The notes beneath the pieces are model-generated. The model saw only the letters and a list, made by a program, of their open reading frames with translations. It searched no databases and was not told where the DNA came from. A program made the translations under genes and the position numbers. Source: Patescibacteria group bacterium (GTDB lineage: Bacteria; Patescibacteriota; Gracilibacteria; Peribacterales; Peribacteraceae). From it: a stretch of DNA of 43,738 bases. The stretch covers positions 1 to 43,738 of the forward strand of contig JBDRFD010000029.1 in NCBI GenBank assembly GCA_043819035.1, written 5' to 3'. How positions within the stretch are numbered: position 1 is the stretch's first letter; every line of letters begins with the position of its first letter. This document shows, piece by piece, positions 5,012-43,738 of this stretch.

Positions 5012-5018
5012 TCTACCC

Positions 5019-5972: not shown

Positions 5973-5983
5973 TACGAAATCGA

Positions 5984-6949
5984 ATGGTAAAAAGATCTTC
6001 CGATACCCGGCCCCAAAAGAACCTCGACTCAAAGAGGGAGAATGGCACTATACCCATGTTTGTCCTCGCGCTTCTCCTGATTTTTATAGGAGCTCAAACA
6101 GCCCCGGCTGCATACGGAAACATTCCCAAGCGTTTTCCCGTACTCGCAGCATGCACGCGTTACGAATATAACATCTTTAAGGGTACCGACTTTAATAAAT
6201 ACAAATTTCCGGAAGTCACAACCGTGAGCGACGTCTCGCGTTGGACCAAGCAATATCATGAGACAGTCAGCGAAGTGGTGGATGAAGTCTTCAATGGCCC
6301 TCCGGGGCCTCCCATTTGCACCGCACCTTCGTATGAAGGACTCCTTCCTCTTTCCGCAAGCCCGAAGCTGGGCGAACTTGCATCCTCGCTTCCATCCTGG
6401 AATTCACTCACGTGGCAAGTGCCGCCTGCCGGCACGGATCCCGAAGATTTCGATGCGGATCCTGATCTTATGAACACAAATGCGGGGAAATTAAGCCAGC
6501 TGGATGTTGGAACCGTACTGCTCGAATACCTGCGCATGTACGAATGCGCGCTCGTGGAACGCAGCCTCTTCCTGATCAAAGACACCTATGACCAAGAGAA
6601 GGACCGCGATAAGAGAATGGAGAACCTCAAAACAGAAGTCTCGGGTGATGTCTTGGAATCGCTCCTGATATTTCTGAAGGGGAGACCTCTCAACTGGCCT
6701 ATGTACTTGAATTTTTTTGTTGGAGATCGCCAGATCATCTTGAGCGAACTGACACAAGCGCGGCGTTCGCTTAATCGAACTCTCGCATTCCTTGCCGGTT
6801 TCAATCGTATGAGACCGATAGACATAGAGCTTAAGTGTCTTCAGCAGGCATCGCTTGATGTTCGAAACGGCTTGGCGCTCGCTGCCGACGCAAGCTCCTG
6901 CCTGCCGCGCATTTGGAACATCAAAGATGTTCTGCGCGACTACAAGTAA
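5984..6949 (+). CDS. Membrane-anchored or secreted hypothetical protein, operon gene 3
   Basis: ATG at 5984 lies 11 nt after the gene 2 stop. The track start at 5969 is a TTG. The hydrophobic segment is MFVLALLLIFIGAQTAPAAYG, so 6056 is an alternative start. Confidence 0.65.
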   Translation: MVKRSSDTRPQKNLDSKRENGTIPMFVLALLLIFIGAQTAPAAYGNIPKRFPVLAACTRYEYNIFKGTDFNKYKFPEVTTVSDVSRWTKQYHETVSEVVDEVFNGPPGPPICTAPSYEGLLPLSASPKLGELASSLPSWNSLTWQVPPAGTDPEDFDADPDLMNTNAGKLSQLDVGTVLLEYLRMYECALVERSLFLIKDTYDQEKDRDKRMENLKTEVSGDVLESLLIFLKGRPLNWPMYLNFFVGDRQIILSELTQARRSLNRTLAFLAGFNRMRPIDIELKCLQQASLDVRNGLALAADASSCLPRIWNIKDVLRDYK

Positions 6950-6954
6950 TCCCC

Positions 6955-9549
6955 ATGAAGAAGTTCTTCCATCTCTCTCTCGGCATACTCGCTCTCTCTG
7001 CCCTCTTCATACCGGATGGAGCCTCCGCGGGCATCTACGGGTGGGCGCGCGCGCTAACCAATTTTGAGTATAAAGGAATTGACGGGCCGATCTCCGGTTT
7101 CATCACGCACAAGCAGGTGTTCAACCGGTCGGATACGGACCCGTTCTCCGGTGCGGATGTGAATGATGCCATGGAATACAGCACCGACAACATCTGCAGG
7201 AGGAGGCGGGATATTAAAGGGGCATTAAGTTGCGATGCAATCGCGCAACCTGTGCGTGATATCGCGCGACGTGAAGAGCTGGTGCGCACATTGGAGCGCG
7301 ATCTTCAGGCAATCGCACTGGGGTATGAGCTCCCCATCACCGATCACTCCATCGAGCCAATGTCGTTGGCGCCGCGAATGCCAAGCATTATCCGAATCTG
7401 GCAATCCAGCTCAGACTGGATCTACTCGCCTGTAACCGAACGACGTGTTCGCTCTCAGTCATTCCCGACCAAAGAAGAAGACCCCGTACTATATGACTTG
7501 GTTATGGGCAAAAAAGATGGGGATGGCAATATCATAAAACCCGGCATCAAGCAGCTCGCCGGTGAAGGCATGGCGCGGCGCTATAGGTGGGGACTCTTCA
7601 CGGTCAAAAGGGAGGACCCGCAGTTGGAAAATTGCAGCAAATGGTACGAATGCAAAGATTGGCTGAGTTGCTGGGAAAAACAGGACAACGATACGGAGCT
7701 TAAGCCGCTTTTTGTTCGCGGGTGCAGTACGATCCCGGAGGCAAGCCTGGAAGACATGCTTCAAAAAGTTCTAGACCATTTGCATGCGACGATCGTTTTC
7801 GACCCGCCGCTCCAAAATGGAGAAATTGTGATTTTTCCGCCATGGGAATTAAATGAAGATACCTTCATGTGGGTGCACATGAACTATGCGAGGAAAAGGG
7901 ACGATATCGGTCTGGGGGACAAGCTCCCTCTGGAACCGATGATGCTTAAGCTTGATTGCGACTGGGAGAATGATGAGTATGGAACTCCCGCATGTGTCCC
8001 GGGGATTGTCGGAGACACCTGTTTAAGCGGAGGCGACCCTGACACGTGTAAAAAGGGAATAATTCTGGGCGGCATGTACTTGGATCCGCCACGGGAACCT
8101 CCGATGACAGAAAAGGTATGCACCATGCCATTCTCTTCACACGGATACCTCTGCAAAGAAATTGATCAGATGCGTTGCCCTCCGCAGGAGCCGGAGGAAG
8201 GCGAAAAGGCTCCTTCGGATGAAGGAATTGTTCTCACTCGTTGCGATCCCGATAATCTCACCGGTGTCACATGGCAGATGGAGTCCGGACCCGATGCCTG
8301 CCGCATTGGAGGATGGCGATTCAATCCCGTCGGGTACAAAAATGATGAAGGTATCATTGAACCGGTTAAGGACACTCCTAAGAGGGATAAAGAAATTAAT
8401 CGCCCCTTCAACTGCAGCAACTGCGCTGTGGATCTGTTCTGCAGCGGACAGGGTGGCACATGTGTAGGAGGAGCATATACACTCTCGAAAAATGATAATG
8501 ACGTATTTGGGATTTGTCTCCCGGAAACTACCCCCATCAATTCGTACTTCCTTTTGCATGAGTTGGTACATGCACAACAATTCTGCAATCTACCACCGGA
8601 AGCAATGAGGGAAATGACAAGTACTCCGGAGCGGTGCTGCGCGGTGGAACAACCGGCATACTTCACCCAATGTGCAGCTGTGGCAGAAGATGGCCACTTT
8701 GAAGACACAGATCTCACTGTAGAAGTATGCACAAGTGCTTTTGCCAATCTCTCATGCCTTAAATCAATGTCACCGGGAAGTGGAGGGCTCCCTTGTACGG
8801 GAAATTATTACACTATCGATGAATTGATCGACATCACTAAAAGGGTTAATAAGGCAGCCGATAAGAATTTAGCTGGTCTTCCAGAAACGTGCGAAGACGT
8901 CATAAATTATATGGATCCGCGCGCAAAAATGTTTATAAACTCGCTCCCGCTTGTATGCTCAGCGGAATGCCAATCCGAATATCAGAACACAATCGGAAAT
9001 AACGCCTGTTATATCGCACAGTGCACCGAAGAATCACTGGAAACGCAGAGGTTGTACCCTGGGCGTATGAACTTTGTAACGCAGGATGAAGCTTTCCCGT
9101 GGGAATCGGATATCAAACCCGATCCTCTGATCGGTTCTGTGATGCCGATTCCCCCATTACCCCTCACACGATTCCCCTCCTATCGCCCCGAACTCTTTGT
9201 GAAGGATCTGGATCTGGCGCTCTGCCAATTGGCCGGACTTCCTATCAGTCAGCCTCCGCATCGCTGCGCCTTCCATGCGCTTCGGCAGTTGGCGTTACTC
9301 CCTTCAAATCCGTCTTTGCTTGGTTATGGCTTTGTAACCCAGACATCAGAGGGGCAGGAAGAAGCGTGGGGTTTGCAATCTTTGGCACCCAGCATCGGCG
9401 TGCGATTGGGAACAGACCTCTACATTCAGTATTTCCGGCGTGCGGGAAAAGCATTCTGGGAGCTGGTGCGCGGCGCGAACGAACTCATCGGCGGAATCGC
9501 CACACTGGAATTCCCCGCGGACTCCTGCCCCCGATACAACCCTCAGTAG
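6955..9549 (+). CDS. Large secreted Cys-rich protein (864 aa) with a single HExxH motif, operon gene 4
   Basis: ATG at 6955 lies 5 nt after the gene 3 stop. The signal peptide is MKKFFHLSLGILALSALFIPDGASA. HELVH is encoded at 8557..8571. Cys clusters include CSNCAVDLFCSGQGGTC. Confidence 0.8.
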   Translation: MKKFFHLSLGILALSALFIPDGASAGIYGWARALTNFEYKGIDGPISGFITHKQVFNRSDTDPFSGADVNDAMEYSTDNICRRRRDIKGALSCDAIAQPVRDIARREELVRTLERDLQAIALGYELPITDHSIEPMSLAPRMPSIIRIWQSSSDWIYSPVTERRVRSQSFPTKEEDPVLYDLVMGKKDGDGNIIKPGIKQLAGEGMARRYRWGLFTVKREDPQLENCSKWYECKDWLSCWEKQDNDTELKPLFVRGCSTIPEASLEDMLQKVLDHLHATIVFDPPLQNGEIVIFPPWELNEDTFMWVHMNYARKRDDIGLGDKLPLEPMMLKLDCDWENDEYGTPACVPGIVGDTCLSGGDPDTCKKGIILGGMYLDPPREPPMTEKVCTMPFSSHGYLCKEIDQMRCPPQEPEEGEKAPSDEGIVLTRCDPDNLTGVTWQMESGPDACRIGGWRFNPVGYKNDEGIIEPVKDTPKRDKEINRPFNCSNCAVDLFCSGQGGTCVGGAYTLSKNDNDVFGICLPETTPINSYFLLHELVHAQQFCNLPPEAMREMTSTPERCCAVEQPAYFTQCAAVAEDGHFEDTDLTVEVCTSAFANLSCLKSMSPGSGGLPCTGNYYTIDELIDITKRVNKAADKNLAGLPETCEDVINYMDPRAKMFINSLPLVCSAECQSEYQNTIGNNACYIAQCTEESLETQRLYPGRMNFVTQDEAFPWESDIKPDPLIGSVMPIPPLPLTRFPSYRPELFVKDLDLALCQLAGLPISQPPHRCAFHALRQLALLPSNPSLLGYGFVTQTSEGQEEAWGLQSLAPSIGVRLGTDLYIQYFRRAGKAFWELVRGANELIGGIATLEFPADSCPRYNPQ

Positions 9550-9550
9550 C

Positions 9551-11239
9551 ATGATGGCATCTCTTCCTTCGCAGGCAGCCCGAACAATGCGATGCGTCAT
9601 ACGGATGACACTTGTTATCGTACTGTTCGCACTGTCAATTTCCGCTTTCGCTGATGATACTGCCGTTGATAGCTTATGTAAGGGCGGAGAAGATGAGGCT
9701 GTGGAGGCGATCCTGAATTCCGTAACTCCCGTTTCCGCACACTTTACACAGAAAGTGCTCGACCGGGCGGAAAAGGGAATCGAGGAGGCATTCAGCCATA
9801 CTCAGACTTTCAATGACAAAGATTTTATGTCATGGGCAGAGCATACATTCCAGGCCTTCTCCGCAATTATCGATACCAAGTTGCGCCTGATCTATCAGGA
9901 ACGAGACTTAAGAGAAAATACAAGCTGCCTGCATATCGATCTTCTGCTGATCGAGACGATGATGGAAAAAGTTCGTTGCAAGATTCAGTTCGCGTTCGAA
10001 AAGAAGCAGCATGTCACCATCCTCCAACTCAAAGACATCATCATCTTCCTGAATGAATCGTATAACGATCTTTCGGAGGGTGCGCGGCACAACGCGTATG
10101 TGGCTTCGGGTTACCCGCAGAGCCGATCATTTGATGCCGATCCGGCCTGGTGCTGCCGTGACGGAAAGATGTGTGAATTATTCTACGAGCCGGGAGAGTG
10201 CGGCGGGAACAAAGAGGAAACCGTGTACTCATGCATGATTGAGACTGATTGCGGCTCCATGAAGCTTTGCCCTTTTCATTCGGACTATCTTCCCCCGTCT
10301 TCTTTCGGAAGCGGAGGGACTGTATTTGGGTACGGGTGTGATCTTGGAATCATCAGCCGCTACAGTTCCATCAGCGCTCCGGACTCTAAAATCGGAGATG
10401 CAATAAACGCGGAGGTAAAAGCCATGCGGGAATTAATCAATGAACGTGACAAATTTATTACGGACTCCATGCACCTAAAAGAAGACGCAACTAATCTTGA
10501 TCTCTGGATGGGAAGGGCTCCTTCTCCGAGACTTGAGTATTTTGGTATGACAGTCGACTCCCAACGTGAGCACTACACTGTCTTCGGATGCAGCGAAAGC
10601 CCATATGCATGGTCAGCTCCAATCTCGGACGAAGAAGAGGAAGAAGGAACCGACAGAACTCCGGACAGCCTCTGGCCGCCCATCTGGCCCGCCGGCGCAA
10701 TCCGGTGGCCGACATATGGAGCGTTCTCTTTTAATCGAAATGAGCTGCAGCTAATGAAGGAATATAGAAAGCTTCGCGAGGAATGGGGGAAGAGGAGGCC
10801 GCTCGCTTATGAGCTTCCTGATCAGTTTGGCTTCTACTTTTTCCTCCAGCTCTACTTCAGAGGGCAATTCAAGCTTTGGGACATATATCAAGAGCGCCTC
10901 ACAAGCACTATCGTCGCGCACGCAACCGATGTTCCCCGCCGCATAATCGCCGAGCTTACTCCACTGCGAGAAGCAGTAGGTGAATTCTCAACGTATGCAT
11001 CTGTTCTGCCGGCTGCCGATAGCGGGGCAGAAGCAAAAGGAGGCATCCGAGGTTTTGCCCGCGGGCTAGCATATTTCCTAAGACGCTCATGTATCACACG
11101 CCCGTGCAACGAGCGTCTCGAGCGCATCCTCAGGGTCGTCCTGCAGGACAAATGTTTCCCGTACACCGGCGGTAACTACAGCGGAAAGGTGTGGGAAGAT
11201 TGCAAGAAGGCAGCTGAGCTCGATGAATTTGCTCCTTGA
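9551..11239 (+). CDS. Secreted/anchored Cys-rich hypothetical protein (562 aa), operon gene 5
   Basis: ATG at 9551 lies 1 nt after the gene 4 stop. The hydrophobic N-terminus is MRCVIRMTLVIVLFALSISAFADD. A Cys cluster reads CCRDGKMCELFYEPGECGG. Confidence 0.75.
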   Translation: MMASLPSQAARTMRCVIRMTLVIVLFALSISAFADDTAVDSLCKGGEDEAVEAILNSVTPVSAHFTQKVLDRAEKGIEEAFSHTQTFNDKDFMSWAEHTFQAFSAIIDTKLRLIYQERDLRENTSCLHIDLLLIETMMEKVRCKIQFAFEKKQHVTILQLKDIIIFLNESYNDLSEGARHNAYVASGYPQSRSFDADPAWCCRDGKMCELFYEPGECGGNKEETVYSCMIETDCGSMKLCPFHSDYLPPSSFGSGGTVFGYGCDLGIISRYSSISAPDSKIGDAINAEVKAMRELINERDKFITDSMHLKEDATNLDLWMGRAPSPRLEYFGMTVDSQREHYTVFGCSESPYAWSAPISDEEEEEGTDRTPDSLWPPIWPAGAIRWPTYGAFSFNRNELQLMKEYRKLREEWGKRRPLAYELPDQFGFYFFLQLYFRGQFKLWDIYQERLTSTIVAHATDVPRRIIAELTPLREAVGEFSTYASVLPAADSGAEAKGGIRGFARGLAYFLRRSCITRPCNERLERILRVVLQDKCFPYTGGNYSGKVWEDCKKAAELDEFAP

Positions 11240-20894: not shown

Positions 20895-21926
20895 ATGATG
20901 CCCAAAAAGAAACCCAAAAAGAAACCGGGCCGAAAAAATCTGAGCCCAAAAGCCGCCCGTAAAGCTTTTTTACAGAAGCAATTTATGCAGGCCCAGCAAC
21001 TTGTCTTCAAAGAAAAAGCTCGCCAGGAAGCTACTAAAGGGGAACACAAAGAGGAAAGGGCAGCTGGGGAAGAGCTCGCACAGGAGCAGCTCAGTGAGAG
21101 ACAGCTTGAGGAAGAAAAGCAAAAGAAGGGGCGTGAGGAATGGAAGAAGAAAGAAGAAAAGGAAAAGGAGCTCCTCGCAGAAATGAAACGCAAACAAGAA
21201 GAAGAGAAGAAAAACCGCCGGAAATTCAAAGAACATCTGCAGGAGGAAGAGAAAAAGAATAAGCAACTGATGGAAGATCTCGCCGCTTCGAATGCCATCC
21301 GAGATAAAATGGAACGCAGAAAGATGGAAGGAGCTAAACTGGAAAGAGATACCAGGGCAGAGGCGAAAAGTACCGAAAACCGCAAACAGAATGAAGCTGA
21401 GATGAACGCAAAGAGTAAGAAGAAACAACTGGAATTGGCTAACAGAAAGGTGCAGGGGAAAATAGATGAAGAAGAACGGAGCAAAACGTATGTACTGGAG
21501 GATGAAGCACGAAGGCAAAAGGCAAAGCTTGACAACCAAGAACGCAAAAAGAAATCTGATCTTAAGTTCGCCTATGAACGCAAGCGAGCTGAAACACAAC
21601 GATTCACGAATCCGTATCAACAAAAAAGCGAAGTTATGAAGATTGACCGTGGGGAGCAAAGTGAACTGAAAAAGATAGAGGCAGAAACGCGCAGGCAGCA
21701 ATCGGAAATTGATGCGAAAACCAAGAAGGCGATCTTCGATGTTCAAAAGGAAGCAAGCCACAAGCGCGGTCAGGCCGCCTCGGATGAGCGCGGGCAAATA
21801 ACGCAGATCGACCTGGAGAAGCGTGAGGCCAAACGCCTGGCAGAACTGGAGGCCTCGCAGAAAAAGGCCGGCATCCGCCGCAGGCAGATCAAGATTTTGC
21901 ACGGAGAAGAGGAAACGGATTCCTAA
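20895..21926 (+). CDS. Highly charged Lys/Glu/Arg-rich low-complexity protein (343 aa)
   Basis: The plus frame gives a coiled-coil-like K/E/R sequence. The antisense ORFs are F/L/S-rich shadows. The 3' end has a diverged second copy at 22659..22715 with mostly synonymous differences, which supports this reading frame. Confidence 0.6.
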   Translation: MMPKKKPKKKPGRKNLSPKAARKAFLQKQFMQAQQLVFKEKARQEATKGEHKEERAAGEELAQEQLSERQLEEEKQKKGREEWKKKEEKEKELLAEMKRKQEEEKKNRRKFKEHLQEEEKKNKQLMEDLAASNAIRDKMERRKMEGAKLERDTRAEAKSTENRKQNEAEMNAKSKKKQLELANRKVQGKIDEEERSKTYVLEDEARRQKAKLDNQERKKKSDLKFAYERKRAETQRFTNPYQQKSEVMKIDRGEQSELKKIEAETRRQQSEIDAKTKKAIFDVQKEASHKRGQAASDERGQITQIDLEKREAKRLAELEASQKKAGIRRRQIKILHGEEETDS

Positions 21927-21962
21927 TGCACCGAACCAGGATTGAGGAGCTCCACTTCGTCT

Positions 21963-22319
21963 TCAAGAGTCACCATCCATATCGTTAAGCATTATGGTGA
22001 TTACTTTTTTGAGAACAGGCAGGTCTTTTTTAACAGTATCCCATACTCTCTGAACATTTGTCGCAGAGTATTCGTGAATGAGAATGTTGCGCATACTAAT
22101 AGCTTCCTTCCAGGATATCTGCTTGTACTTCTTTCTTAAAAGAACCGGCAGTTTACTGGCGGCTTCTCCGATAATCGATATCTGACGAATGACAGCATCC
22201 TGAGTTTTATCATCTCTACAAAACAATCTCTTCCCTTCGGTTGTGTATTCCTCAATATGAACAATGGCATTCAGGATATCATCCAAATATACCCGAACAT
22301 CTTTCTGTTGCTTGGTCAT
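21963..22319 (-). CDS. hepT: HEPN-domain (DUF86) toxin of a HepT/MntA-type module
   Basis: The R-x4-H motif is MRNILIHEY. The size and the 4-bp overlap with the upstream nucleotidyltransferase gene fit. Confidence 0.85.
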   Translation of the reverse strand: MTKQQKDVRVYLDDILNAIVHIEEYTTEGKRLFCRDDKTQDAVIRQISIIGEAASKLPVLLRKKYKQISWKEAISMRNILIHEYSATNVQRVWDTVKKDLPVLKKVITIMLNDMDGDS

Positions 22320-29683: not shown

Positions 29684-31174
29684 ATGCTGAATATTGGCCT
29701 CGTACATCTTGTGCTCGTTGCTAGCTTATTAACAAACATCGTCTTGATGACTATCAATACACAAGGCCCTTCTCAGCTTGGGCAAATCATGGGAGACCCC
29801 TTTGTGGATGAATTTTATGAAGAGCCACAGGATATACTAGATCTTTTTGATTTTACGTCCGACCCCTCACCTGAACATGGTACATTTTACTCAGACTATG
29901 AAGATAGGGATGACGATGATGAGGAGCATGAGCCCTTTACTTCTGAAGCGCCTCTTGATCCTCCCGGTGAGCATGTCCCCGCTCTTACGCTTGCACATGA
30001 CACAGAGATCTCCTCATTACATAGCACTTTTGCCTCCGCTGCTGGACATGAGCCTGCTGAATCCGCAAGTGAATCTATTCACCATCCGGAAGATTCTTCC
30101 TACCATGACCCGGCTCTATCTACAGCTGGACATGACCCTGTGGTATCAACTGGCGATCATGAATCAACTCTTTCCCCGAGGCACGATGAAACACTCTCTA
30201 CTATGGGGCACTACCCTGTAGATAGTAGTACACATACAGCTTATGATTCTTTGAGCCATACCCCATCATTATCGACGAGCGGGCATTACCCCAGGCTCTC
30301 TGCAGACGGTAAACATGATCCCTCGGATTCTGGTTCTAAACATGATTCCTTTGCTTCTGCTACTCACGACATTACCGAATCATACATTGGGCATTGGCCA
30401 AGTGTGTCTGCTACGCATTCTGCTCTTGATTCATCCAGCCATGAAAGCGAGCTTTCTGTTGTTGGACACCACCCATCAATTTCCATACTACATACCATTG
30501 GTTACTCAGAAGCTCACAGCACCGAGGACTCTAAAGCTGGTCATGACCCCTTTGTGTCGACTGATGCTGAACATTCACCATCTGACTCATATGCTCATGA
30601 TCCTGTTGTAAGTGGAGCAGCCCCTCATGACCCTACTATGAGCACTGGTGGTCATTCTTTGAGTGACTCCTTAGGTGGTCATCCTGGTATGCATACGGTT
30701 TCATTAAGTGAAGAGGGGGCTCGTGCTCTTATGGAGGCTCATGCTATTGTTGGGAGTGAGCCTCATGACGCTGAATATTCCAGCTCTGATCATGATACTG
30801 CTGCTTCCGACGGTGAGCATAATCCTTTTTTATCACATGATCTAGCAACATCACTTGGTGATCATTTATCGAGTGCTTCCTCAATGCATACAGTACCTAA
30901 AAGCGAAGAAGGGGCTCATGATATTGTTGGGAGTGAGCCTCATGACGCTGAATATTCCGGTATTGGCCATACCACTAGTGACTCCTCAGGCATTCACGAT
31001 CCCGTTGTAAGTGAAGAAACCTATCATGATTCTGCTATGTCAACCGGTGACCATCCTGAGCCTCATGACCCGGCCTTCTCTGTTTTAGAACAACATTATG
31101 CCTCCGACTCAGGTCATGGGGAGGGTCACGATCCAATGGATTCATACGACGAAGATGGTGGTTACGGTGAGTAG
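29684..31174 (+). CDS. Membrane-anchored His/Asp/Ser/Pro-rich repeat protein (degenerate x-H-D-P-x-x-S units)
   Basis: The N-terminal TM segment is LVHLVLVASLLTNIVLMTI. It carries many GHDPVVS/HDPxxS-like units. The same repeat continues in frame after the TAG up to 31288. Confidence 0.7.
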   Translation: MLNIGLVHLVLVASLLTNIVLMTINTQGPSQLGQIMGDPFVDEFYEEPQDILDLFDFTSDPSPEHGTFYSDYEDRDDDDEEHEPFTSEAPLDPPGEHVPALTLAHDTEISSLHSTFASAAGHEPAESASESIHHPEDSSYHDPALSTAGHDPVVSTGDHESTLSPRHDETLSTMGHYPVDSSTHTAYDSLSHTPSLSTSGHYPRLSADGKHDPSDSGSKHDSFASATHDITESYIGHWPSVSATHSALDSSSHESELSVVGHHPSISILHTIGYSEAHSTEDSKAGHDPFVSTDAEHSPSDSYAHDPVVSGAAPHDPTMSTGGHSLSDSLGGHPGMHTVSLSEEGARALMEAHAIVGSEPHDAEYSSSDHDTAASDGEHNPFLSHDLATSLGDHLSSASSMHTVPKSEEGAHDIVGSEPHDAEYSGIGHTTSDSSGIHDPVVSEETYHDSAMSTGDHPEPHDPAFSVLEQHYASDSGHGEGHDPMDSYDEDGGYGE

Positions 31175-31294: not shown

Positions 31295-32392
31295 TTAGTC
31301 GTTTTTTGGATCCTTTGTAATACAGCCTGTTAGCTCTTGTTGATCTTTAAACTTCTTTTGGCATGCAGCTACATGCCCCCAGATATCTACCATTTGTGAG
31401 TATGTTATGTATGGAGAGATAAGAACCCGGCTTGGCTTTCGATTGCCAGATTCATCCAGAAAATCTCCTCTTCCGCGTACTTTACCTTCTAAAGTTGGAT
31501 ATACCCTTATAATGTACTGCTCGAATTCTTCCGGATCCACAAAGTTATCTGCAAGCTGATCGAAGGGCCCATCATAATAATTATTCTGTCGCACATTCAT
31601 TTTATCTACTCCAAACAGAATTTTCCTTCCCATCCCAGGCTCATCATAAAATGCAAATCCTGAGCGCCTTCCTACGTAAATATCTTTCCCATACGGTTGA
31701 AGAAGATCGGGCAATGGTGCGGATTCATCTAGAACAAATCTGAATCTGGATTGCGTTTCATCAAAAAGAAGGACTAATTGAAATCCGGATTCATCAAATG
31801 TGCGCACAACAAATATTTCCCCCTCGTGCATTCTCATATCTACAGGCTCAGTTTGTGAAACATTGTGCAGAAGGAATGTTACAGTCTTATCTTTATATGT
31901 AACCGTGTATTCCAAATCATCAATTTTCTTCAGGATGACACCATCTTCATCGGAGAGATTTTTGTGCCATGATTCCCTATACTCAAAGTATGGTTCGCGC
32001 CGGTTTGTCACCCGAAAGTATGCGAAGCTAATGATCCCTTCTTCACGATCAATACTATCCAACCGAATATTCCCCCATATGTCCCCGCCATTTGCATAGA
32101 AATGGAAGTAGTAATAGTTCTCAGTTGGATACACATTCACAGTGTCTTTGAGCGAGCCAAACACGTATGAAAACATCGATTCAATGTCATCAAGATCCAG
32201 GGATTCTGATCTTACTTCGTCTATAAACTCTTCATTTGTATAGAGTTTGGGCATATTCCCTTTTAATGCTTCTGGGTCATTTCCTGTACCAACAGTTGAG
32301 CTCTGATTGGCACACCCCGTTAGAACCACACTAATTATGAGTGTTGCTATAGCGCCGATGGATTTCAAATAATTTATTTTCATCTTGTTCAC
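31295..32392 (-). CDS. Hypothetical lipoprotein (365 aa)
   Basis: The lipobox is ...IISVVLTGCANQSS, preceded by a basic N-terminus (MNKMKINYLK). Confidence 0.75.
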   Translation of the reverse strand: MNKMKINYLKSIGAIATLIISVVLTGCANQSSTVGTGNDPEALKGNMPKLYTNEEFIDEVRSESLDLDDIESMFSYVFGSLKDTVNVYPTENYYYFHFYANGGDIWGNIRLDSIDREEGIISFAYFRVTNRREPYFEYRESWHKNLSDEDGVILKKIDDLEYTVTYKDKTVTFLLHNVSQTEPVDMRMHEGEIFVVRTFDESGFQLVLLFDETQSRFRFVLDESAPLPDLLQPYGKDIYVGRRSGFAFYDEPGMGRKILFGVDKMNVRQNNYYDGPFDQLADNFVDPEEFEQYIIRVYPTLEGKVRGRGDFLDESGNRKPSRVLISPYITYSQMVDIWGHVAACQKKFKDQQELTGCITKDPKND

Positions 32393-32439: not shown

Positions 32440-33010
32440 TGAGCAACTGAACACCCCTCGCCTTAAAGGCGAGGGGTTCGCGCTGCACTGAAGTGCCCTC
32501 GTTATTGGATATCCACAGTTCCGTGCTGCAATTCTTCTCCTTCTTGATTATCGATGTATTCCTTAATCATCTCATCTGTGATCGCACCACTTGATACTGC
32601 AAGGTATCCTCTTGCCCAGAAATGACGCCCCCAGAAGGTTTTGCGGACAGATGGAAAGAGAGAAAACAGTTTGTAAGGGCTTTCCCCTTTGATCTTTTGC
32701 ATAAGTTTTGAAATTGAAAGATGTGGTGGGTAGGATGCGAAGAGATGGACATGATCAATGGCAACTTTCCCTGAGATGATCTCTACATCTTCTTCCTGAC
32801 ATATTTGACGGATGAGATCTCGTACTTTCTCTCCAACTTGCCCATACAGTATTTTTTTGCGGTATTTTGGAACCCAGACTAGATGAACTTTAAGATCGTA
32901 TTTGCTGTGAGAAGTGGTGCGATAGTGCCTCATAAAAAGGCCACGTAGGGTACCACAAGTTGAGTAAGTGTCGAACTGAAGTCTCCGCCTAAAGGCGGGG
33001 GGTTTCACCC
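32440..33010 (-). mobile_element. IS200-type insertion sequence (IS200/IS605 family, tnpA only); boundaries approximate
   Basis: tnpA is flanked by subterminal hairpins CCCCTCGCC-TTAAA-GGCGAGGGG (32454..32476) and CTCCGCC-TAAA-GGCGGGG (32983..33000). Confidence 0.8.
32502..32933 (-). CDS. tnpA: IS200/IS605-family Y1 (HUH) transposase TnpA
   Basis: Motifs are MRHYRTTSHSKYDLKVHLVWVPKYRKK, the HUH motif HVHLF, and a C-terminal Tyr region (YIDNQ). I moved the start to 32933 so that the upstream hairpin is non-coding. Confidence 0.9.
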   Translation of the reverse strand: MRHYRTTSHSKYDLKVHLVWVPKYRKKILYGQVGEKVRDLIRQICQEEDVEIISGKVAIDHVHLFASYPPHLSISKLMQKIKGESPYKLFSLFPSVRKTFWGRHFWARGYLAVSSGAITDEMIKEYIDNQEGEELQHGTVDIQ

Positions 33011-38534: not shown

Positions 38535-38693
38535 AACACGGCTTATGTGGCTCGTCGGCGGCACTTTATGAGATTTCTACAATATTGACTGTGCCACCTC
38601 CTCGACCCAAATGCTTCGGCTGTAGCCCTGCGGGACATTATACAGCCTCGCACTTCACATAAGCCGAAACGTTGGCCAAAATAGATTTTTTCC
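38535..38693 (+). repeat. Structured ~155-nt element, left copy (inverted partner at 39721..39876)
   Basis: It is closed by GGCTTATGTG (38540..38549) pairing with CACATAAGCC (38656..38665). The inner stem is GGCTGT...ACAGCC around a CCC-TGC-GGG hairpin. The termini are AAC...GTT. Confidence 0.85.
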
Positions 38694-38899
38694 CTCCTTC
38701 CTGCCACCGTCGCACATGTGCGACGTGGCCTGCGGTTGCCCTCCGCTTTTCTTTTCGTTAACCGAACAAATACATTCAAACTACGATAATCGGTAGTTGA
38801 TTGATTGCTTGACTCTTGTATTGTTTCTGAGTTCCTGCAAGGGACGATAAGAGTAGGAACAGGTCCTGCTCATTCACAACTTTTTTCGGAGGAACGATC

Positions 38900-39619
38900 A
38901 TGTTTGGAAGAATTCAAGAATTCTGTGTACGTAGAGCGGATAGGTGTCGGATGAAAAAAGTGGCAGTAATCATCCGAAATGTCGATTGGCATTGGAATCA
39001 ATATCGACAAGAGCACTATCTGAACTATTTCTGGATTCCGGCTGGGCGTTCACGCGTCCTTGCTCGCAGATTGATACTCAAGAATCTGCGCAGCGCTGCC
39101 TATTACACCCTCGACGACGTCAGCAAATGGCTGATGATACTTCATCTCCTGGATAAAGGAATCCAAAGCACAGAAAGGTCCGGACAGGCTATCATCGATT
39201 GCCTCAGAGAAAGTGCCACGGAGTGCCAGATCGATATTATCGGCACTGTCTTTGAGTGCAATATTCCTGAAGCTATCGTCCGGAAGATATGCGATTCGGA
39301 AGAGAATGTCATATCCCTTCGCCGGAAGGGGCACGCAGTTCCTGCCGACATCCTTGATCCTCTCGTGGAACACGCTGCTGAAAGTGGCGAACTCGAGAAG
39401 CTCAGAATCCTATACGGAACTGAGCCCCCGGAACAATTTCTGCATGTATGCATGGAAGCTGCACGTACACGGAACATACCGGTGGCGGTTGAGTGTGCGC
39501 AGGTTCTCAGAGACTATCGGGCACTTGCCGAGATACTCTCTGTTGCAGGCACGCCCCACGAGATGCTCACAGCCAAGTTGTATCTTGAGGGACGAGTACC
39601 AGAAAGCGAACTCTCATGA
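38900..39619 (+). CDS. Hypothetical protein (239 aa) bracketed by the inverted structured repeats
   Basis: A strong Shine-Dalgarno GGAGGA lies 7 nt upstream of the ATG, which is unusual in this window. No recognisable motif. Confidence 0.6.
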   Translation: MFGRIQEFCVRRADRCRMKKVAVIIRNVDWHWNQYRQEHYLNYFWIPAGRSRVLARRLILKNLRSAAYYTLDDVSKWLMILHLLDKGIQSTERSGQAIIDCLRESATECQIDIIGTVFECNIPEAIVRKICDSEENVISLRRKGHAVPADILDPLVEHAAESGELEKLRILYGTEPPEQFLHVCMEAARTRNIPVAVECAQVLRDYRALAEILSVAGTPHEMLTAKLYLEGRVPESELS

Positions 39620-39720
39620 CCCGTCCAATTAAGAGCAGGACCACGCAAGCCCTGTACCACCAAGGTATGGGGCTTCTTAAACACGTACGAAAAGAAAAGC
39701 TGCGGGTACCTTGGAATTCG

Positions 39721-39876
39721 GGAAAAAATCTACATCGGCCAACGTTCCGGCTTATGTGAAGTACGAGGCTGTATAATATCCCGAAGGGGCACAGCCGAAG
39801 AATTTGGGTCGAGGAGCGCCGACCTCCTTAATTTAAAAATCAAAAAAGAGGCGCGACGAGCCACATAAGCCGTGTT
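39721..39876 (-). repeat. Structured ~155-nt element, right copy (reverse complement of 38535..38693)
   Basis: The reverse complement aligns with the left copy over a 23-nt 5' block and a ~95-nt 3' block at roughly 85-90% identity by eye. A non-homologous central hairpin sits between the blocks. Confidence 0.85.
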
Positions 39877-40018
39877 ATATGATGTACGTACTTTTCCTTT
39901 TACTCGCCAGAGCGAGACTGCTCTTAATATAATCCGATTTTGTTTCCACCTTTTTAGCGACGGGTAGAGGGGAATTAAAGGGGTGAATGCCCGGAGCACA
40001 AAGAAAACAACAAACAAT

Positions 40019-41527
40019 TTACAATTTTTCCAATGCATCCTTCAGAACCATCGTTGCCTTGCAATCATCTTCGTTGTATTCGAGAATTCTATCCATTATG
40101 GATTCATCTTTTGTTTCGAGATACTTATTGAACCATTGTATAGACAGCGCACCTGATGGTGTTTCGTCTCTCCATTTGAATTTAAGATATGTTGCTAGTG
40201 CTTTTAGTGAATAACTGCCAACAGGCCAGTCCGTATGCTTTTGTACAACACTGTATAGGTCAATAACATTTGGATTATCGTAAAAATCTTCAACCTCTTT
40301 CAATGTTATTACATCAGGATATCGTTTTTGTAGTCTCTTGTAGGTCGTTTTCTCATGATGTGAGTAGTAATAAACAGCAAAATCATTCGGTGGTAGTGAG
40401 TTAATGTAACCCCAAAAGTCCTGCCAGATTTTTTTCTCTGCATCATCGGAAATCTCATTGGCAGTAAAATGAACAAAGTGTTCACCGTTACTATTGCGCT
40501 CATAAACACCATGAAGGTAGACAAAATCTTGAGTTGGATCGTCTTCTATATCAAAAAAGAGCTCGTGGCTTACCTTCGGGAAATCTAAAGTGCCATACAA
40601 AACAGGCTTCTTTGTTCGATGTAGGATATTTGCTCTGCAAACAGCTTTTGCCAGACTATCTTTTCCAATTCGATACAAAAAATCCTTGTTTCCAGACTTC
40701 TTCTCACTCTCTTTTTGCTTCATTACTTCCTCAATATCCAAATCAACAAATTCGTCTAAGCTCTCGATGAGGAGATCTTCGTTGATTTTGTCACGGTTGT
40801 TCCTTCCTACGTAGAACACAGTTGTGAGATCCTGCGCTGCTTCACACCACTTTTTACAGGAATTGTACCATGGGCAAAGTGTGCAGACAGCAGACATAGC
40901 CGGTTTGTTTTTGTCCTGATTACTCATGAGAATTGCTACATTGTTTTTGACTTGTTCGTAGTACTCCCACCACGTCATCTTTGATCGTGGTCCCATAAGA
41001 GCGGATAAGTCGTACTTCACCTGCTCACCATGTATATCAATGACGATACCGTTATCATGAGAGCAGAATCCGATAGCCTTGAGGAGTTCGTTGTAGAGGC
41101 AAAGTTGCACAGCGTAATGCTTCTTTGGCTTTCCTTCGTCTCCCGTTTTTTCATCGGCTCCTTCTTTGCCCGTACCTGATTTAATGTCGATGGGCATGTA
41201 GGTATCATCTGGCAACTTTTTGAGGAGATCGGGTATGCCGAGCATGTTTTCATGAATAAGTACACCTTGGTAGATCAGCGGAGATTTGTTCTTCATTGCT
41301 TCAATAGTTTTCGTAAAACGCTCAGAGTGATTGCCTTCACTGAGATCCAGATATTCACCAATTTGAGAGACAATCTTTTCTTCATGCTTCACACCCTTTT
41401 TCCACAGGAGCTCAACGAAAGGGTTTGTTTCTTCAATTTTCTCTTCCTGTGGACCGTAAATGTCACGCCAGACGCGGTGAGGACATTGAATATAGTCGTA
41501 GAGCTTTGAGGCTGTAATATATGTCAT
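40019..41527 (-). CDS. TM0106-family RecB-like (PD-(D/E)xK, Cas4-like Cys cluster) nuclease fused to a C-terminal RNase H-like exonuclease-type domain
   Basis: The N-terminus is MTYITASKLYDYIQCPHRVWRD. Motifs are IPDLL...MPIDIKSG, the Cys cluster CTLCPWYNSCKKWC, and the C-terminal FFDIEDDP...YYYSHHEKT...DCKAT. I moved the start to ATG 41527. Confidence 0.85.
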   Translation of the reverse strand: MTYITASKLYDYIQCPHRVWRDIYGPQEEKIEETNPFVELLWKKGVKHEEKIVSQIGEYLDLSEGNHSERFTKTIEAMKNKSPLIYQGVLIHENMLGIPDLLKKLPDDTYMPIDIKSGTGKEGADEKTGDEGKPKKHYAVQLCLYNELLKAIGFCSHDNGIVIDIHGEQVKYDLSALMGPRSKMTWWEYYEQVKNNVAILMSNQDKNKPAMSAVCTLCPWYNSCKKWCEAAQDLTTVFYVGRNNRDKINEDLLIESLDEFVDLDIEEVMKQKESEKKSGNKDFLYRIGKDSLAKAVCRANILHRTKKPVLYGTLDFPKVSHELFFDIEDDPTQDFVYLHGVYERNSNGEHFVHFTANEISDDAEKKIWQDFWGYINSLPPNDFAVYYYSHHEKTTYKRLQKRYPDVITLKEVEDFYDNPNVIDLYSVVQKHTDWPVGSYSLKALATYLKFKWRDETPSGALSIQWFNKYLETKDESIMDRILEYNEDDCKATMVLKDALEKL

Positions 41528-41614
41528 ATTGAGTGCATGGTACGCTCTCAGTATGCTTGCGGAAAGGATCAATAGAGGGAACACACACTCTTGTATATTG
41601 CGGTTGTGTGATGG

Positions 41615-43207
41615 CTACACATCAGCGACAATTCCTAAATATTTTTTGAAGTAATTTCTCAGTCCATCATCAACAATGTAGATATATGTTCCGTGTATTC
41701 CCCGTGTGAGCAGTGTCTTATAAATGTTAATTATATAGCGTTTCAATTCTGCTGGGTCTTGTATGCCTGCATGGCCTTTTGTATCAAAGTACAACTCTTT
41801 ATTAACGACAAACGTTTTATTTTCAGAATCATACGATAGCTCTGGTCCAATGATGACACCAACGTAGTTCAGGTCATACCCCTGTATGGTGTGAATGCAC
41901 CCCACTTCGTTGATTGCATTTGGAGAATTCACCCAGTCGTGCGACGTGCTATTCCATACCAATTTGATGCCATCGATCTCAATGTCATAATCTTGCGCTT
42001 GCTCATCCTTTCCCTTCTTCGTGTTCCAAGGCCAAGCATATCCAGCCACGACGCGACAGAGTCCGTGTTCTATTTCTCGTTGCTTGATGTCGTTAAGGAA
42101 TGGGCGAATATCCTCATACAATCGAAATTCGTATTCACCGAATTTACGTGTGGTTGGCACCTGTCGATTGAACAGATGCTCGATGAAATCGATGTACTCT
42201 GTTCCGCCCTTCACTCTCACCTGTGTGGAAAGTTCAAAGTAGTCGGTATGGATAGCATCAAAGTCTTCTGCGCGTACATCGGAAGGCTTAATCGATTGAT
42301 TCTGATCGTAGAAAAGAACGTGGGCGCGAGACGACTGTAGAATCCAGTTCAGTTCAGTAGCATCTTCCGGTAAGTTTAATTGCTTGTTTATGGCATCAAA
42401 GGCGGCGTAATTCGTGATATTCTTACGTCGGCGCAGTCGGTGCGCCTCATCAACGATTAAGAGGTCGTATCCGCCTCTGGTTGCATCTGCTGGGCCAATG
42501 ACCATAGAACTCTTCAGCCCTTTTACGTGCCTGAAGACCTTTTGGACCGTTTTGCGCAGAGACATCATTGGCACCACCAGTCCCACATTCAGATGTTGCG
42601 TTTTCTCGTTTTCCTGCAGATATTTGAAGAGGTAGATGGCCAAGATTGTCTTGCCTGTGCCAGGCTTGCCGTTGACGATATAGGTGTGACTTTTTTGTTG
42701 TTCTAGATCTTCCACAATAGAGTGGGCGACAGACATTTGATCTTCCGTGAGTGATTTGTAAGGGGAATACTTAAAAAGATCGCCATTCTTGATTTCAGCC
42801 ATGGTATGGGTGGCCAGCTCCATCTCACGCAACTTTTCCCATGCAAGCTCGAACTTAGTCTTGTATCGTTCTTTGTCGTAGTAATTGTGATCCTTCATGC
42901 CTCCGTTTCCATTCTGTAGAATAAAACGTCCATCGCCGGACATGTACTGGATCAGCCACGATTCTATGTCCAGCGTTGCAGAGACGTTGAATTCCTCATC
43001 AGAAATGACATGCATGGTGGAAAGCTTCCGCTTCTCTACATTTTCGTAATGTTGTTTGCAACGAGAGAGAAGATGGACAGTTTGGCCGATGTAGACCTCT
43101 TTACCGTTTTCCGATACGTAAACGACAGGCCAATTGGTACCAAAGTAGTATTCTCTCCATCTCTGAAACGATTCGGGCTTGAACGGGAGGGAGTAGATTT
43201 TGGCCAT
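41615..43207 (-). CDS. GIY-YIG-like N-terminal domain fused to a DUF2075 (Schlafen group III helicase-like) P-loop ATPase
   Basis: The GIY-YIG-like segment is VVYVSENGKEVYIGQTVHLLSRCKQH. Walker A is NGKPGTGKT and Walker B is LLIVDEAHRL. The C-terminal segment is IHTIQGYDLNYVGVIIG. Confidence 0.85.
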   Translation of the reverse strand: MAKIYSLPFKPESFQRWREYYFGTNWPVVYVSENGKEVYIGQTVHLLSRCKQHYENVEKRKLSTMHVISDEEFNVSATLDIESWLIQYMSGDGRFILQNGNGGMKDHNYYDKERYKTKFELAWEKLREMELATHTMAEIKNGDLFKYSPYKSLTEDQMSVAHSIVEDLEQQKSHTYIVNGKPGTGKTILAIYLFKYLQENEKTQHLNVGLVVPMMSLRKTVQKVFRHVKGLKSSMVIGPADATRGGYDLLIVDEAHRLRRRKNITNYAAFDAINKQLNLPEDATELNWILQSSRAHVLFYDQNQSIKPSDVRAEDFDAIHTDYFELSTQVRVKGGTEYIDFIEHLFNRQVPTTRKFGEYEFRLYEDIRPFLNDIKQREIEHGLCRVVAGYAWPWNTKKGKDEQAQDYDIEIDGIKLVWNSTSHDWVNSPNAINEVGCIHTIQGYDLNYVGVIIGPELSYDSENKTFVVNKELYFDTKGHAGIQDPAELKRYIINIYKTLLTRGIHGTYIYIVDDGLRNYFKKYLGIVADV

Positions 43208-43209
43208 AT

Positions 43210-43560
43210 TTATAGCTGGTTATATTTGTGGTGCTTGCCTTTGGATTTGCTGACAGGATACTTATTGGCATTCTTCTGCAGTTTTTCCTCCATAGCCTGC
43301 AGCAAATCAATTCCCAAGTTATCCGAGAATTCAAAGAGATAAATGGCCACATCTGCTATCTCTTCTCCTATCTCATCTTGGTGTGTTTTTACGTACTCTT
43401 CTACTTCTTCCTTGTCTTTCCATTGGAAATGTTCCAGCAGTTCAGCAGCTTCAATTGTGATTGAGGCTGCCATACTCTTCGGATCGTGAAACTGCATCCA
43501 GTCACGTTCGTCGCGAAATGCTCTGATCTGTCTCAAAATTGTATTAAAATCTATCATCAT
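43210..43560 (-). CDS. MazG-like nucleotide pyrophosphohydrolase (small all-alpha NTP-PPase)
   Basis: FRDERDWMQFHDPKSMAASITIEAAELLEHFQW...EEIADVAIYL carries the E-x-x-E...E-x-x-D metal-binding pattern. Its stop lies 2 nt before the DUF2075 start. Confidence 0.85.
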   Translation of the reverse strand: MMIDFNTILRQIRAFRDERDWMQFHDPKSMAASITIEAAELLEHFQWKDKEEVEEYVKTHQDEIGEEIADVAIYLFEFSDNLGIDLLQAMEEKLQKNANKYPVSKSKGKHHKYNQL

Positions 43561-43738
43561 AGGTAAAGAATAGCAGAATGCAATAATCGTGATAAATTAT
43601 CAGAACTGTCCAAAGAAACTTTAGAACAAACTTGGTTGCGGACCAGCTCTGATGCGCAGCCGATTGAGTGTATTTGGCCTCAATGAGGCTAATTCGACGA
43701 ATTGAACTCTATGGAGAATGACGGTGGCAATCATTCGT

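Follow-up and report, generated by a model that had tools for sequence, protein, structure and literature searches.

Introduction

Nhi, the closest characterised architecture to the nuclease-helicase described here, protects against phages (bioRxiv 10.1101/776245, Bari et al.), as does Nhi-like (10.1101/2022.05.11.491447, Millman et al.). In some genomes the DUF2075 domain is fused to a GIY-YIG or PD-(D/E)xK domain and lies beside a modification-dependent restriction enzyme (PMC6765204). DCTPP1, whose preferred substrates are deoxycytidine triphosphate (dCTP) and 5-modified dCTP, sanitises the nucleotide pool and prevents a mutator phenotype (PMC7162842). For rare variants of a defence family that depletes deoxynucleoside triphosphates (dNTPs), a MazG-like domain has been put forward as an effector targeting nucleoside triphosphates (NTPs) (10.64898/2026.01.15.699771). 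Here we analyse a locus at which proteins of these kinds are encoded side by side: three genes near one end of a 43,738-nucleotide (nt) stretch of DNA from a Patescibacteria group bacterium (assembly GCA_043819035.1, contig JBDRFD010000029.1; the whole stretch is called the window below), which encode a MazG-like protein (gene 1), a GIY-YIG/DUF2075 nuclease-helicase (gene 2) and a TM0106-family nuclease (gene 3). A sequence-only reading had proposed the three genes as one candidate anti-phage module. In the literature searched, we found no paper that treats both DUF2075 and MazG, or MazG in a relevant Schlafen context, and TM0106 was found in corrosion papers only.

Results

The three genes comprise a conserved pair and an independent third gene

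The locus has the following features (coordinates are those of the window; aa, amino acids; ORF, open reading frame):

43210-43560, minus strand: gene 1, MazG-like, 116 aa (ORF call and PF12643); first gene of the conserved pair
41615-43207, minus strand: gene 2, GIY-YIG plus DUF2075/Schlafen-group-III-type superfamily 1B (SF1B) helicase, 530 aa (PF09848); second gene of the pair
42893-43135, minus strand: GIY-YIG nuclease domain of gene 2, approximately aa 25-105 of 530 (PF01541)
40019-41527, minus strand: gene 3, TM0106-family nuclease, 502 aa (TIGR03491 and PF13482)
41528-41614, minus strand: 87-nt spacer from the DUF2075 stop to the TM0106 start; junction of two modules
43561-43738, minus strand: region upstream of the pair, ending with the window edge and containing a weak sigma-70-like site at 43583-43612

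The ORF calls agree with the description in the sequence-only reading of three minus-strand genes separated by gaps of 2 nt (genes 1 and 2) and 87 nt (genes 2 and 3), provided that gene 3 starts at the ATG at 41527. The longest ORF for gene 3 spans 40019-41584 on the minus strand and opens with a GTG at 41584; we chose the ATG because the homologues are 502 aa long and share the same first residues (MTYITAS).

The results of a reciprocal comparison of loci indicate that genes 1 and 2 belong together and that gene 3 does not belong with them. We analysed 80 DUF2075 loci, taken from one genome per species and containing orthologues with 45-62% identity to gene 2, and 80 TM0106 loci (L081-L160), taken from metagenomes and containing homologues with 59-84% identity to gene 3. 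The DUF2075 loci come from Patescibacteria, Clostridium, Holdemania, Bacteroidetes, Gammaproteobacteria, Bdellovibrionales and one Woesearchaeote. In 79 of the 80 DUF2075 loci the immediate neighbour on the upstream side of the DUF2075 gene is MazG-like, and the eightieth locus is truncated by a contig end. No TM0106 homologue occurs within 10 kb in any of the 80 DUF2075 loci. Conversely, the 80 TM0106 loci, 52 of which have at least 2.5 kb of upstream sequence, contain no DUF2075 homologue; one has a MazG-like gene, 5 kb away. The proposed three-gene unit thus failed the linkage test in both directions, and only the pair is conserved.

Comparisons with the nearest relatives of the window lead to the same division. 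The closest TM0106 locus (L081) has 84% nucleotide identity to the window over 39848-41533, and homology breaks off where TM0106 begins, six bases 5' of its ATG; upstream of TM0106, L081 has a small GIY-YIG ORF, a methyltransferase gene and an Eco57I-like gene. The best non-self identities are 84% for TM0106 and 64% for DUF2075, which indicates that the two genes differ in history. A syntenic relative of the window (L087) has Mfd, DnaN, GlmU and a metallo-beta-lactamase (MBL)-fold gene, has TM0106 elsewhere and in the opposite orientation, and was found to have no copy of the pair within approximately 13.5 kb.

According to the hypothesis of a single dedicated defence system with three components, the co-directional and tight packing of the genes, the absence of a predicted terminator-like site from the 87-nt spacer between genes 2 and 3 (41528-41614) and the complementarity of NTP hydrolysis, helicase-nuclease and exonuclease activities would reflect joint function. 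The reciprocal absence of TM0106 and DUF2075 from each other's loci, the end of homology at the TM0106 start codon and the unequal best identities speak against the hypothesis, and we consider it highly improbable. We conclude that the results establish the string as two juxtaposed modules, two genes plus one, and that TM0106 is a mobile stand-alone gene with no conserved neighbour.

The MazG-like/DUF2075 pair is kept through rearrangement and across replicons

In most of the 80 DUF2075 loci the distance from the MazG-like stop to the DUF2075 start is 1-5 nt. The adjacency is kept in three loci in which the two genes are divergently oriented (L067, L069 and L076), and in two IMG/VR contigs in which the order is swapped and the MazG-like gene lies downstream of DUF2075 (L161, 3188-5031; L162, 3520-5363). 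The pair is also present in a contig labelled 'Bacteriophage sp.', a label that is unverified (L165). On megaplasmids of the Bacillus cereus group, a DUF2075 protein 32% identical to gene 2 has a neighbour annotated 'nucleotide pyrophosphohydrolase', and this MazG-like neighbour is 53% identical to the window protein. Nearly all plasmid occurrences of the family belong to the Bacillus cereus group, among 95 records of which 69 are from Bacillus. The pair has no other conserved neighbour, the commonest being present in 7 of the 80 loci. Pairwise identities of MazG-like and DUF2075 proteins are moderately correlated (r = 0.36), a value that is uninformative for so short a protein. We conclude that the results establish the MazG-like and GIY-YIG/DUF2075 genes as a conserved, horizontally mobile two-gene unit.

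We considered and ruled out a phage-borne module: only two IMG/VR contigs and four phage records have a relative. Two further observations concern variant loci. The 80 loci contain 86 DUF2075-family genes, and the six extra genes, which lack a MazG neighbour of their own, lie no more than five genes from a pair. In plasmid pY5S7-1 of Paenibacillus amylolyticus (L164, 3522-6581), a DUF2075 gene at 33% identity has a gene for DUF3578, an McrB-N-like, modified-DNA-binding domain, in the MazG position; together with the DpnI, Mrr and MrcB_N neighbours of the pair elsewhere, this hints at a link to modified DNA.

Gene 1 has the features of an NTP pyrophosphohydrolase

The domain calls of the sequence-only reading, a MazG-type protein, a GIY-YIG domain fused to DUF2075, and a Cas4-like four-cysteine (4-Cys) PD-(D/E)xK domain fused to an RNase H-like domain, are supported throughout by profiles and motifs. 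Gene 1 matches PF12643 (MazG-like; 2e-20, 73.2 bits, cut-off 27), and sequence searches of the PDB match it to an archaeal pyrophosphatase (4qgp, 7e-23) and to DCTPP1 (6sqw, 8e-17). The metal ligands E37, E40, E67 and D70 (EXXE...EXXD) and the aromatic residues W21, H25 and W47 are each kept in at least 90% of 74 orthologues. We conclude that gene 1 is, as judged from these residues and matches, a predicted all-alpha NTP pyrophosphohydrolase of the DCTPP1/RS21-C6 type with intact metal ligands.

These results bear on the hypothesis that the pair is a toxin and antidote acting by abortive infection, in which the MazG-like protein would restrain a toxic nuclease-helicase, for instance through destruction of a nucleotide that activates it, up to the point at which infection perturbs the pool of nucleotides. 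Such an arrangement would account for the close coupling of a large nuclease gene to a small gene upstream of it, for a MazG-like protein more conserved than its partner across distant clades (53% vs. 32% for the Bacillus plasmid copies) and for an adjacency kept through rearrangements. The MazG-like protein, however, has the catalytic residues of bona fide NTP pyrophosphatases and no extra interaction domain, the helicase protein shows no sign of a nucleotide-sensing domain, and the case is purely inferential; we consider the prospect slim.

Gene 2 is a GIY-YIG/DUF2075 protein with an S24-bearing long form

Gene 2 matches PF09848 (SLFN-g3_helicase/DUF2075) at 1e-67 (229 bits, cut-off 24). Its GIY-YIG match is weak when the protein is scored in full (20.3 bits); the first 130 aa taken alone reach 23.0 bits against PF01541 (cut-off 22.6), PF01541 matches 26 of 28 orthologous N-termini, and an N-terminal profile searched against the PDB matches T4 endonuclease II, the UvrC N-terminal domain and I-TevI. 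Residues Y30, Y39, G41, R49, H53, E82 and N99 are invariant (24-28 sequences), and gene 2 has the features of the GIY-YIG superfamily, namely the GIY...YIG strands and the catalytic Arg, His/Tyr, Glu and Asn. The Walker A motif (G180-T187) and the DEAH motif (D253-H256) are likewise invariant among orthologues. An AlphaFold model of gene 2 has a predicted local distance difference test (pLDDT) score of 81, and its top Foldseek matches, RecD2, SLFN11, RecD, Dda and Upf1, place the helicase in SF1B. Searches of the PDB with the sequences of the gene 2 and TM0106 proteins gave no match, and a look-up of the exact gene 2 protein sequence found no other contig. A full-library profile search returned 772 clusters (50% identity) for the gene 2 family at E ≤1e-30.

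The orthologues occur in two forms. In 38 of the 80, the protein is approximately 675 aa long and has a C-terminal Peptidase_S24 domain (for example, L001:10001-12030), which keeps the UmuD-like Cys-Gly site (PLVGSAPCG.P), the GDSM serine and the conserved lysine; among 10 long forms taken from clusters farther away in the family, 8 have the same GIY-YIG-DUF2075-S24 architecture. The nuclease-helicases that bear S24 could potentially be activated or inactivated by RecA filaments. The window protein is the short form and has no S24 domain, and the 87 nt from the gene 2 stop to the TM0106 start leave no room for an S24 remnant.

Gene 3 encodes two nuclease domains, and its homologues often lie near restriction and helicase genes

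Gene 3 matches TIGR03491 (TM0106) at 6.9e-73 (246.2 bits, cut-off 97.45) over nearly its full length (residues 23-516 to profile positions 1-460 of 462), and matches RNase_H_2 (PF13482) at 3.6e-28. Four cysteines (C15, C215, C218 and C224) are invariant among homologues, as are residues of the PD-(D/E)xK, QxxxY and DEDDy motifs (D100, D114, K116, Q141, Y145, D326, E328, Y484 and D488). In the structural model of gene 3 (pLDDT 87.6), Foldseek matches the N-terminal half to Cas4 (4r5q and 4ic1) and the C-terminal half to DnaQ and to the exonuclease domains of family-B polymerases. We conclude that gene 3 consists of a Cas4-like 4-Cys PD-(D/E)xK domain and a DEDDy (DnaQ/RNase H-like) exonuclease. 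An identification as Cas4 itself was considered and rejected: the match to TIGR00372 is 23.2 bits (cut-off 65), and the window has no repeats resembling clustered regularly interspaced short palindromic repeats (CRISPR).

The 126 proteins of the TM0106 flanks are richer in restriction-modification (R-M) and defence genes than are the flanks of the pair, and include N6_Mtase (8), Eco57I (6), N6_N4_Mtase, ResIII, the HsdR C-terminal domain, a C5 methylase and Mrr, together with Shedu SduA_C, SIR2, HNH, and PIF1 or large SF1 helicases. In 30 of the 80 loci an R-M gene or a helicase gene is found no more than four genes to either side of TM0106, and these genes are often directly upstream and co-oriented. 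Examples are L111, L112, L130, L132, L133, L146 and L160, in which TM0106 directly follows, in the same orientation, a gene for an Eco57I-like protein, HsdM, HsdR, ResIII or an SF1 helicase (1527 aa) that has a Top1 zinc ribbon.

The placement of TM0106 behind ATP-dependent restriction or helicase genes suggests a promiscuous accessory role for the nuclease, which would degrade ends made by whichever ATP-dependent nuclease or translocase lies upstream (R-M of type I, IIG or III, a large SF1 helicase or, in the window, the DUF2075 pair), so that its adjacency to the pair in the window would be functional though not conserved. TM0106 is directly downstream of and co-oriented with such a gene in approximately 10 of the 30 R-M- or helicase-associated loci; it is predicted to combine a 5'-end (Cas4-like) and a 3'-end (DEDDy) nuclease; and in the window it again lies behind a helicase-nuclease. 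We regard a functional adjacency of this kind as rather unlikely, given that approximately 50 of the 80 loci have no such partner by the clustering used, that several TM0106 loci are divergently oriented, and that co-residence in defence islands explains the same pattern.

One family of N6_N4 DNA methyltransferases is represented in 14 of the 80 loci, at a distance of up to four genes from TM0106. One member (L118:3664-5124, minus strand) is fused to a LexA DNA-binding domain at its N-terminus and to an S24 peptidase; judged from this one scanned member (the others are 198-848 aa long), the LexA-S24-methyltransferase is an unusual, putatively SOS-cleavable architecture.

The flanks of the pair are heterogeneous and include defence-type genes

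The immediate flanks of the pair comprise 144 proteins in 114 Pfam families. Recurrent near the pair are NYN, Fic, MrcB_N with NucS_C/YhcG_C PDDEXK, DpnI, Mrr, methyltransferases, RhuM and YgjP, and PADLOC identifies NYN, SoFic, MTase_II, mREase_II and the candidates PDC-S02, PDC-S11 and PDC-S04/S05/S23. The defence-island setting envisaged by the sequence-only reading is therefore seen in part: R-M and defence genes do recur in variable neighbourhoods, whereas the defence function drawn from that setting is an indirect attribution and the three-gene module it was meant to house has given way to two.

A search of 85 loci for a Gram-positive LexA (Cheo) box 5' of the MazG-like gene was negative, with the qualification that the LexA motif of the Candidate Phyla Radiation (CPR) may differ.

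The locus is chromosomal and lies near a repeat, a transposase gene and orphan ORFs

The window is chromosomal (DnaE, Sua5, aspartyl-tRNA synthetase (AspRS), tRNA-Leu, Mfd, DnaN, a GlmU-like gene and an MBL-fold gene), and AspRS (83% best identity) places the organism among Peregrinibacteria/Peribacteria-like CPR. The three genes have a GC content of 0.41-0.45, lower than the 0.472 of the window as a whole; housekeeping genes range from 0.45 to 0.51. The direction of this difference agrees with the earlier suggestion of low-GC acquired DNA and supports it weakly; the deficit is mild and by itself is no proof of acquisition. An IS200 transposase and several orphan ORFs lie near the three genes.

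The window edge is 178 nt upstream of gene 1. No conserved gene is present 5' of the MazG-like gene in the 80 related loci, which makes loss of essential parts at the edge unlikely. The sigma-70-like site at 43583-43612 has 9 of 12 matches, and the number of such sites is not above the shuffled expectation.

The odd repeats that the sequence-only reading placed nearby are indeed present, as an inverted repeat with arms of approximately 160 nt (38535-38694 and 39720-39876; 82.5% identity) and a perfect 23-nt core. The arms enclose an orphan ORF without a Pfam match (38900-39619, plus strand, 239 aa), the right arm abuts the TM0106 3' end, and parts of the repeat are also present in the closest TM0106 locus, L081 (positions 85-188 and 5524-5631). 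The repeat could be an element bounded by terminal inverted repeats, an invertible segment or a lineage-specific repeat. Rfam identified no RNA family in or near the locus, the inverted repeat included; no CRISPR-like array was found in the window and no Cas family among the window proteins scanned.

Elsewhere in the window, an IS200-like Y1 transposase gene (32502-33008, minus strand; PF01797, 2.4e-40) adjoins dnaN. Mfd and DnaN, which are adjacent in the relative L087, are split in the window by the transposase and by orphan ORFs at 29684-31174 (plus strand) and 31295-32392 (minus strand). Five large co-directional ORFs at 1292-11239 (plus strand; 1239, 393, 326, 878 and 599 aa) have no Pfam match at E ≤1e-5. 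The segment 20885-21926 has a strong strand bias (AT skew 0.51 and GC skew 0.20 in 21001-22000) and long ORFs that overlap on both strands, all without a Pfam match.

Discussion

Two modules with a possible role against foreign DNA

The reading we favour, and hold to be somewhat more probable than its negation, is that the locus is a small defence-island-type patch of two independent modules, both with a role against foreign DNA. We favour such a role because the neighbourhoods are variable and rich in R-M genes, because the pair is spread across phyla, and because Nhi provides a precedent. We infer that either module may restrict phages or plasmids and that the two proteins of the pair may act jointly in physical contact.

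According to this reading, the first module (43560-41615) is a conserved two-gene operon. Its MazG-like product would hydrolyse (deoxy)nucleoside triphosphates, the presumed substrates being most plausibly dCTP, 5-modified dNTPs or other non-canonical dNTPs, and its SF1B helicase would translocate on DNA with ATP while the GIY-YIG domain cuts DNA. In the long homologues, the self-cleaving S24 domain would couple activity to filaments of RecA on single-stranded DNA; the window copy has no S24 domain, so its nuclease-helicase would be controlled by other means. The second module (41527-40019), TM0106, would be an iron-sulfur (Fe-S) PD-(D/E)xK nuclease and DEDDy 3'-5' exonuclease that plausibly degrades DNA ends, and would move independently of the pair.

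Several points weigh against this reading. No model in PADLOC-DB v2.0.0 covers the pair, and no PADLOC system had all its components matched. No MazG-DUF2075 fusion is present among approximately 270 homologues. The lack of a predicted terminator in the spacer makes it possible that TM0106 is co-transcribed with the pair by read-through. Defence-type genes make up approximately 15% of the immediate flanks of the pair, a modest figure and a raw share without a matched background. The pair is highly conserved, with approximately 60% identity between CPR lineages, and very small genomes have kept it, a pattern that also agrees with a maintenance role. The family of the pair is present in 2 of 2.9 million IMG/VR contigs and in four phage records. 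Finally, the defence role of the family is a prediction from sequence and context.

The main rival, which we rate as a real but minority possibility, is that the pair serves housekeeping genome maintenance: the MazG-like protein would sanitise dNTPs, the nuclease-helicase would process damaged DNA or stalled forks, and the long forms would act in SOS-like, RecA-activated repair. High conservation with retention in reduced CPR genomes, and near absence from phage collections, are as expected for such a function, as are the sanitation of the nucleotide pool by DCTPP1 (PMC7162842), the occurrence of the GIY-YIG fold in the repair proteins UvrC and Slx1, and the UmuD-like S24 domain with intact residues in 38 of the 80 homologues and in 8 of the 10 distant long forms. 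A maintenance function fits less well with the lack of conserved synteny and the presence of restriction enzymes, Fic and NYN in the flanks; with a spread across phyla, to an archaeon and to megaplasmids, that points to horizontal transfer; with the syntenic Peribacteria relative, which has no copy within the approximately 13.5 kb of L087; and with the characterised role of Nhi, the protein closest in architecture, in defence. The lack of Cheo-type boxes in the 85 upstream regions points the same way, weakly, in view of a possibly different CPR motif.

A further-reaching version of the favoured reading, which we hold doubtful, is that the pair is a widespread, undescribed anti-phage system whose DCTPP1-like enzyme destroys modified or canonical dCTP-type precursors on which the invader depends and whose nuclease-helicase shreds replicating foreign DNA, with an ancestral long form that senses infection or damage by self-cleavage of S24, triggered by RecA filaments. 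On the same doubtful footing, the system would be a prokaryotic counterpart of the SLFN11 replication-stress response, and the window would hold a sensor-less variant beside an independent TM0106 gene.

If the pair is a defence system, it adds a design that combines a nucleotide-pool enzyme with a nuclease-helicase to the known repertoire. It would then also be one of a small number of candidate systems that are common in CPR/Patescibacteria, a group about whose immunity little is known, and its S24 forms would connect RecA sensing to a Schlafen-type helicase in a way that can be tested. If it is a repair module instead, it is an unrecognised SOS-type factor in minimal-genome organisms. In either case the unit of study is corrected from three genes to two plus one, and TM0106 nucleases are shown to be recurrent neighbours of R-M systems.

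Comparison with known systems

The sequence-only reading had recognised no named system in the locus, and the comparison with PADLOC supports it: the matches are partial or weak, gene 2 matching in part Nhi and AbiO and TM0106 matching Cas4 weakly, these belong to different systems, and the MazG-like protein has no match. The match of gene 2 to the Nhi profile (PDLC02372, 3.8e-16) aligns residues 145-353 with profile positions 176-349 of 470. Gene 2 was also considered as an Nhi-like protein, and this was rejected: BLASTP aligns only the Walker A region, with 27% identity over 92 aa (approximately 400 of the 611 Nhi-like residues were compared).

Gene 1 has the fold of DCTPP1 (RS21-C6, XTP3-TPA; human and mouse) and of 4qgp, and has in common with them the EXXE/EXXD ligands, the aromatic pocket residues and a C-terminal KYP...KY motif. 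Unlike DCTPP1, it is a bacterial protein of 116 aa whose gene shares an operon with that of a nuclease-helicase.

Gene 3 has in common with the Cas4/AddB/Exo5 Fe-S nucleases the C-Xn-C-X2-C-X5-C, D...D-x-K and QxxxY motifs, and with the YprB/DnaQ-like DEDD exonucleases the DEDDy motifs. Unlike Cas4, AddB and Exo5, it fuses two nucleases in one 502-aa TIGR03491 protein.

The S24 domains of the long-form homologues, and of these only, have in common with UmuD and LexA the Cys-Gly cleavage motif, the GDSM serine and the lysine. In UmuD and LexA, S24 is attached to a DNA-binding or polymerase-accessory domain, whereas in the homologues it is attached to the C-terminus of a nuclease-helicase.

The Schlafen group III proteins (SLFN11, SLFN5 and SLFN14) have a helicase in PF09848, as does gene 2; the top structural matches of the gene 2 model include SLFN11 and SLFN14, and both kinds of protein combine a nuclease with an SF1B ATPase. 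The Schlafen nuclease, however, is a core RNase unrelated to the GIY-YIG domain, and gene 2, unlike the Schlafens, is prokaryotic, is operonic with MazG and has no indication of tRNA cleavage. By analogy, the S24-bearing homologues suggest a possible link to DNA damage, as in SLFN11.

The greatest likeness is to Nhi (Staphylococcus epidermidis SERP2475) and Nhi-like (Bacillus cereus FSL H8-0482), in which, as in gene 2, an N-terminal nuclease is joined to a DUF2075-type SF1B helicase, a nuclease-NTPase arrangement directed at nucleic acids. The nuclease of Nhi and Nhi-like is PD-(D/E)xK, whereas that of gene 2 is GIY-YIG; the Nhi-like sequence has an RPD...IECK motif, and its nuclease region is not alignable with gene 2. 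Nhi and Nhi-like are single genes, whereas the gene 2 family has a near-obligate MazG-like partner and often S24. We conclude that the MazG-like/DUF2075 pair is undescribed and is a variant of the nuclease plus DUF2075 helicase kind.

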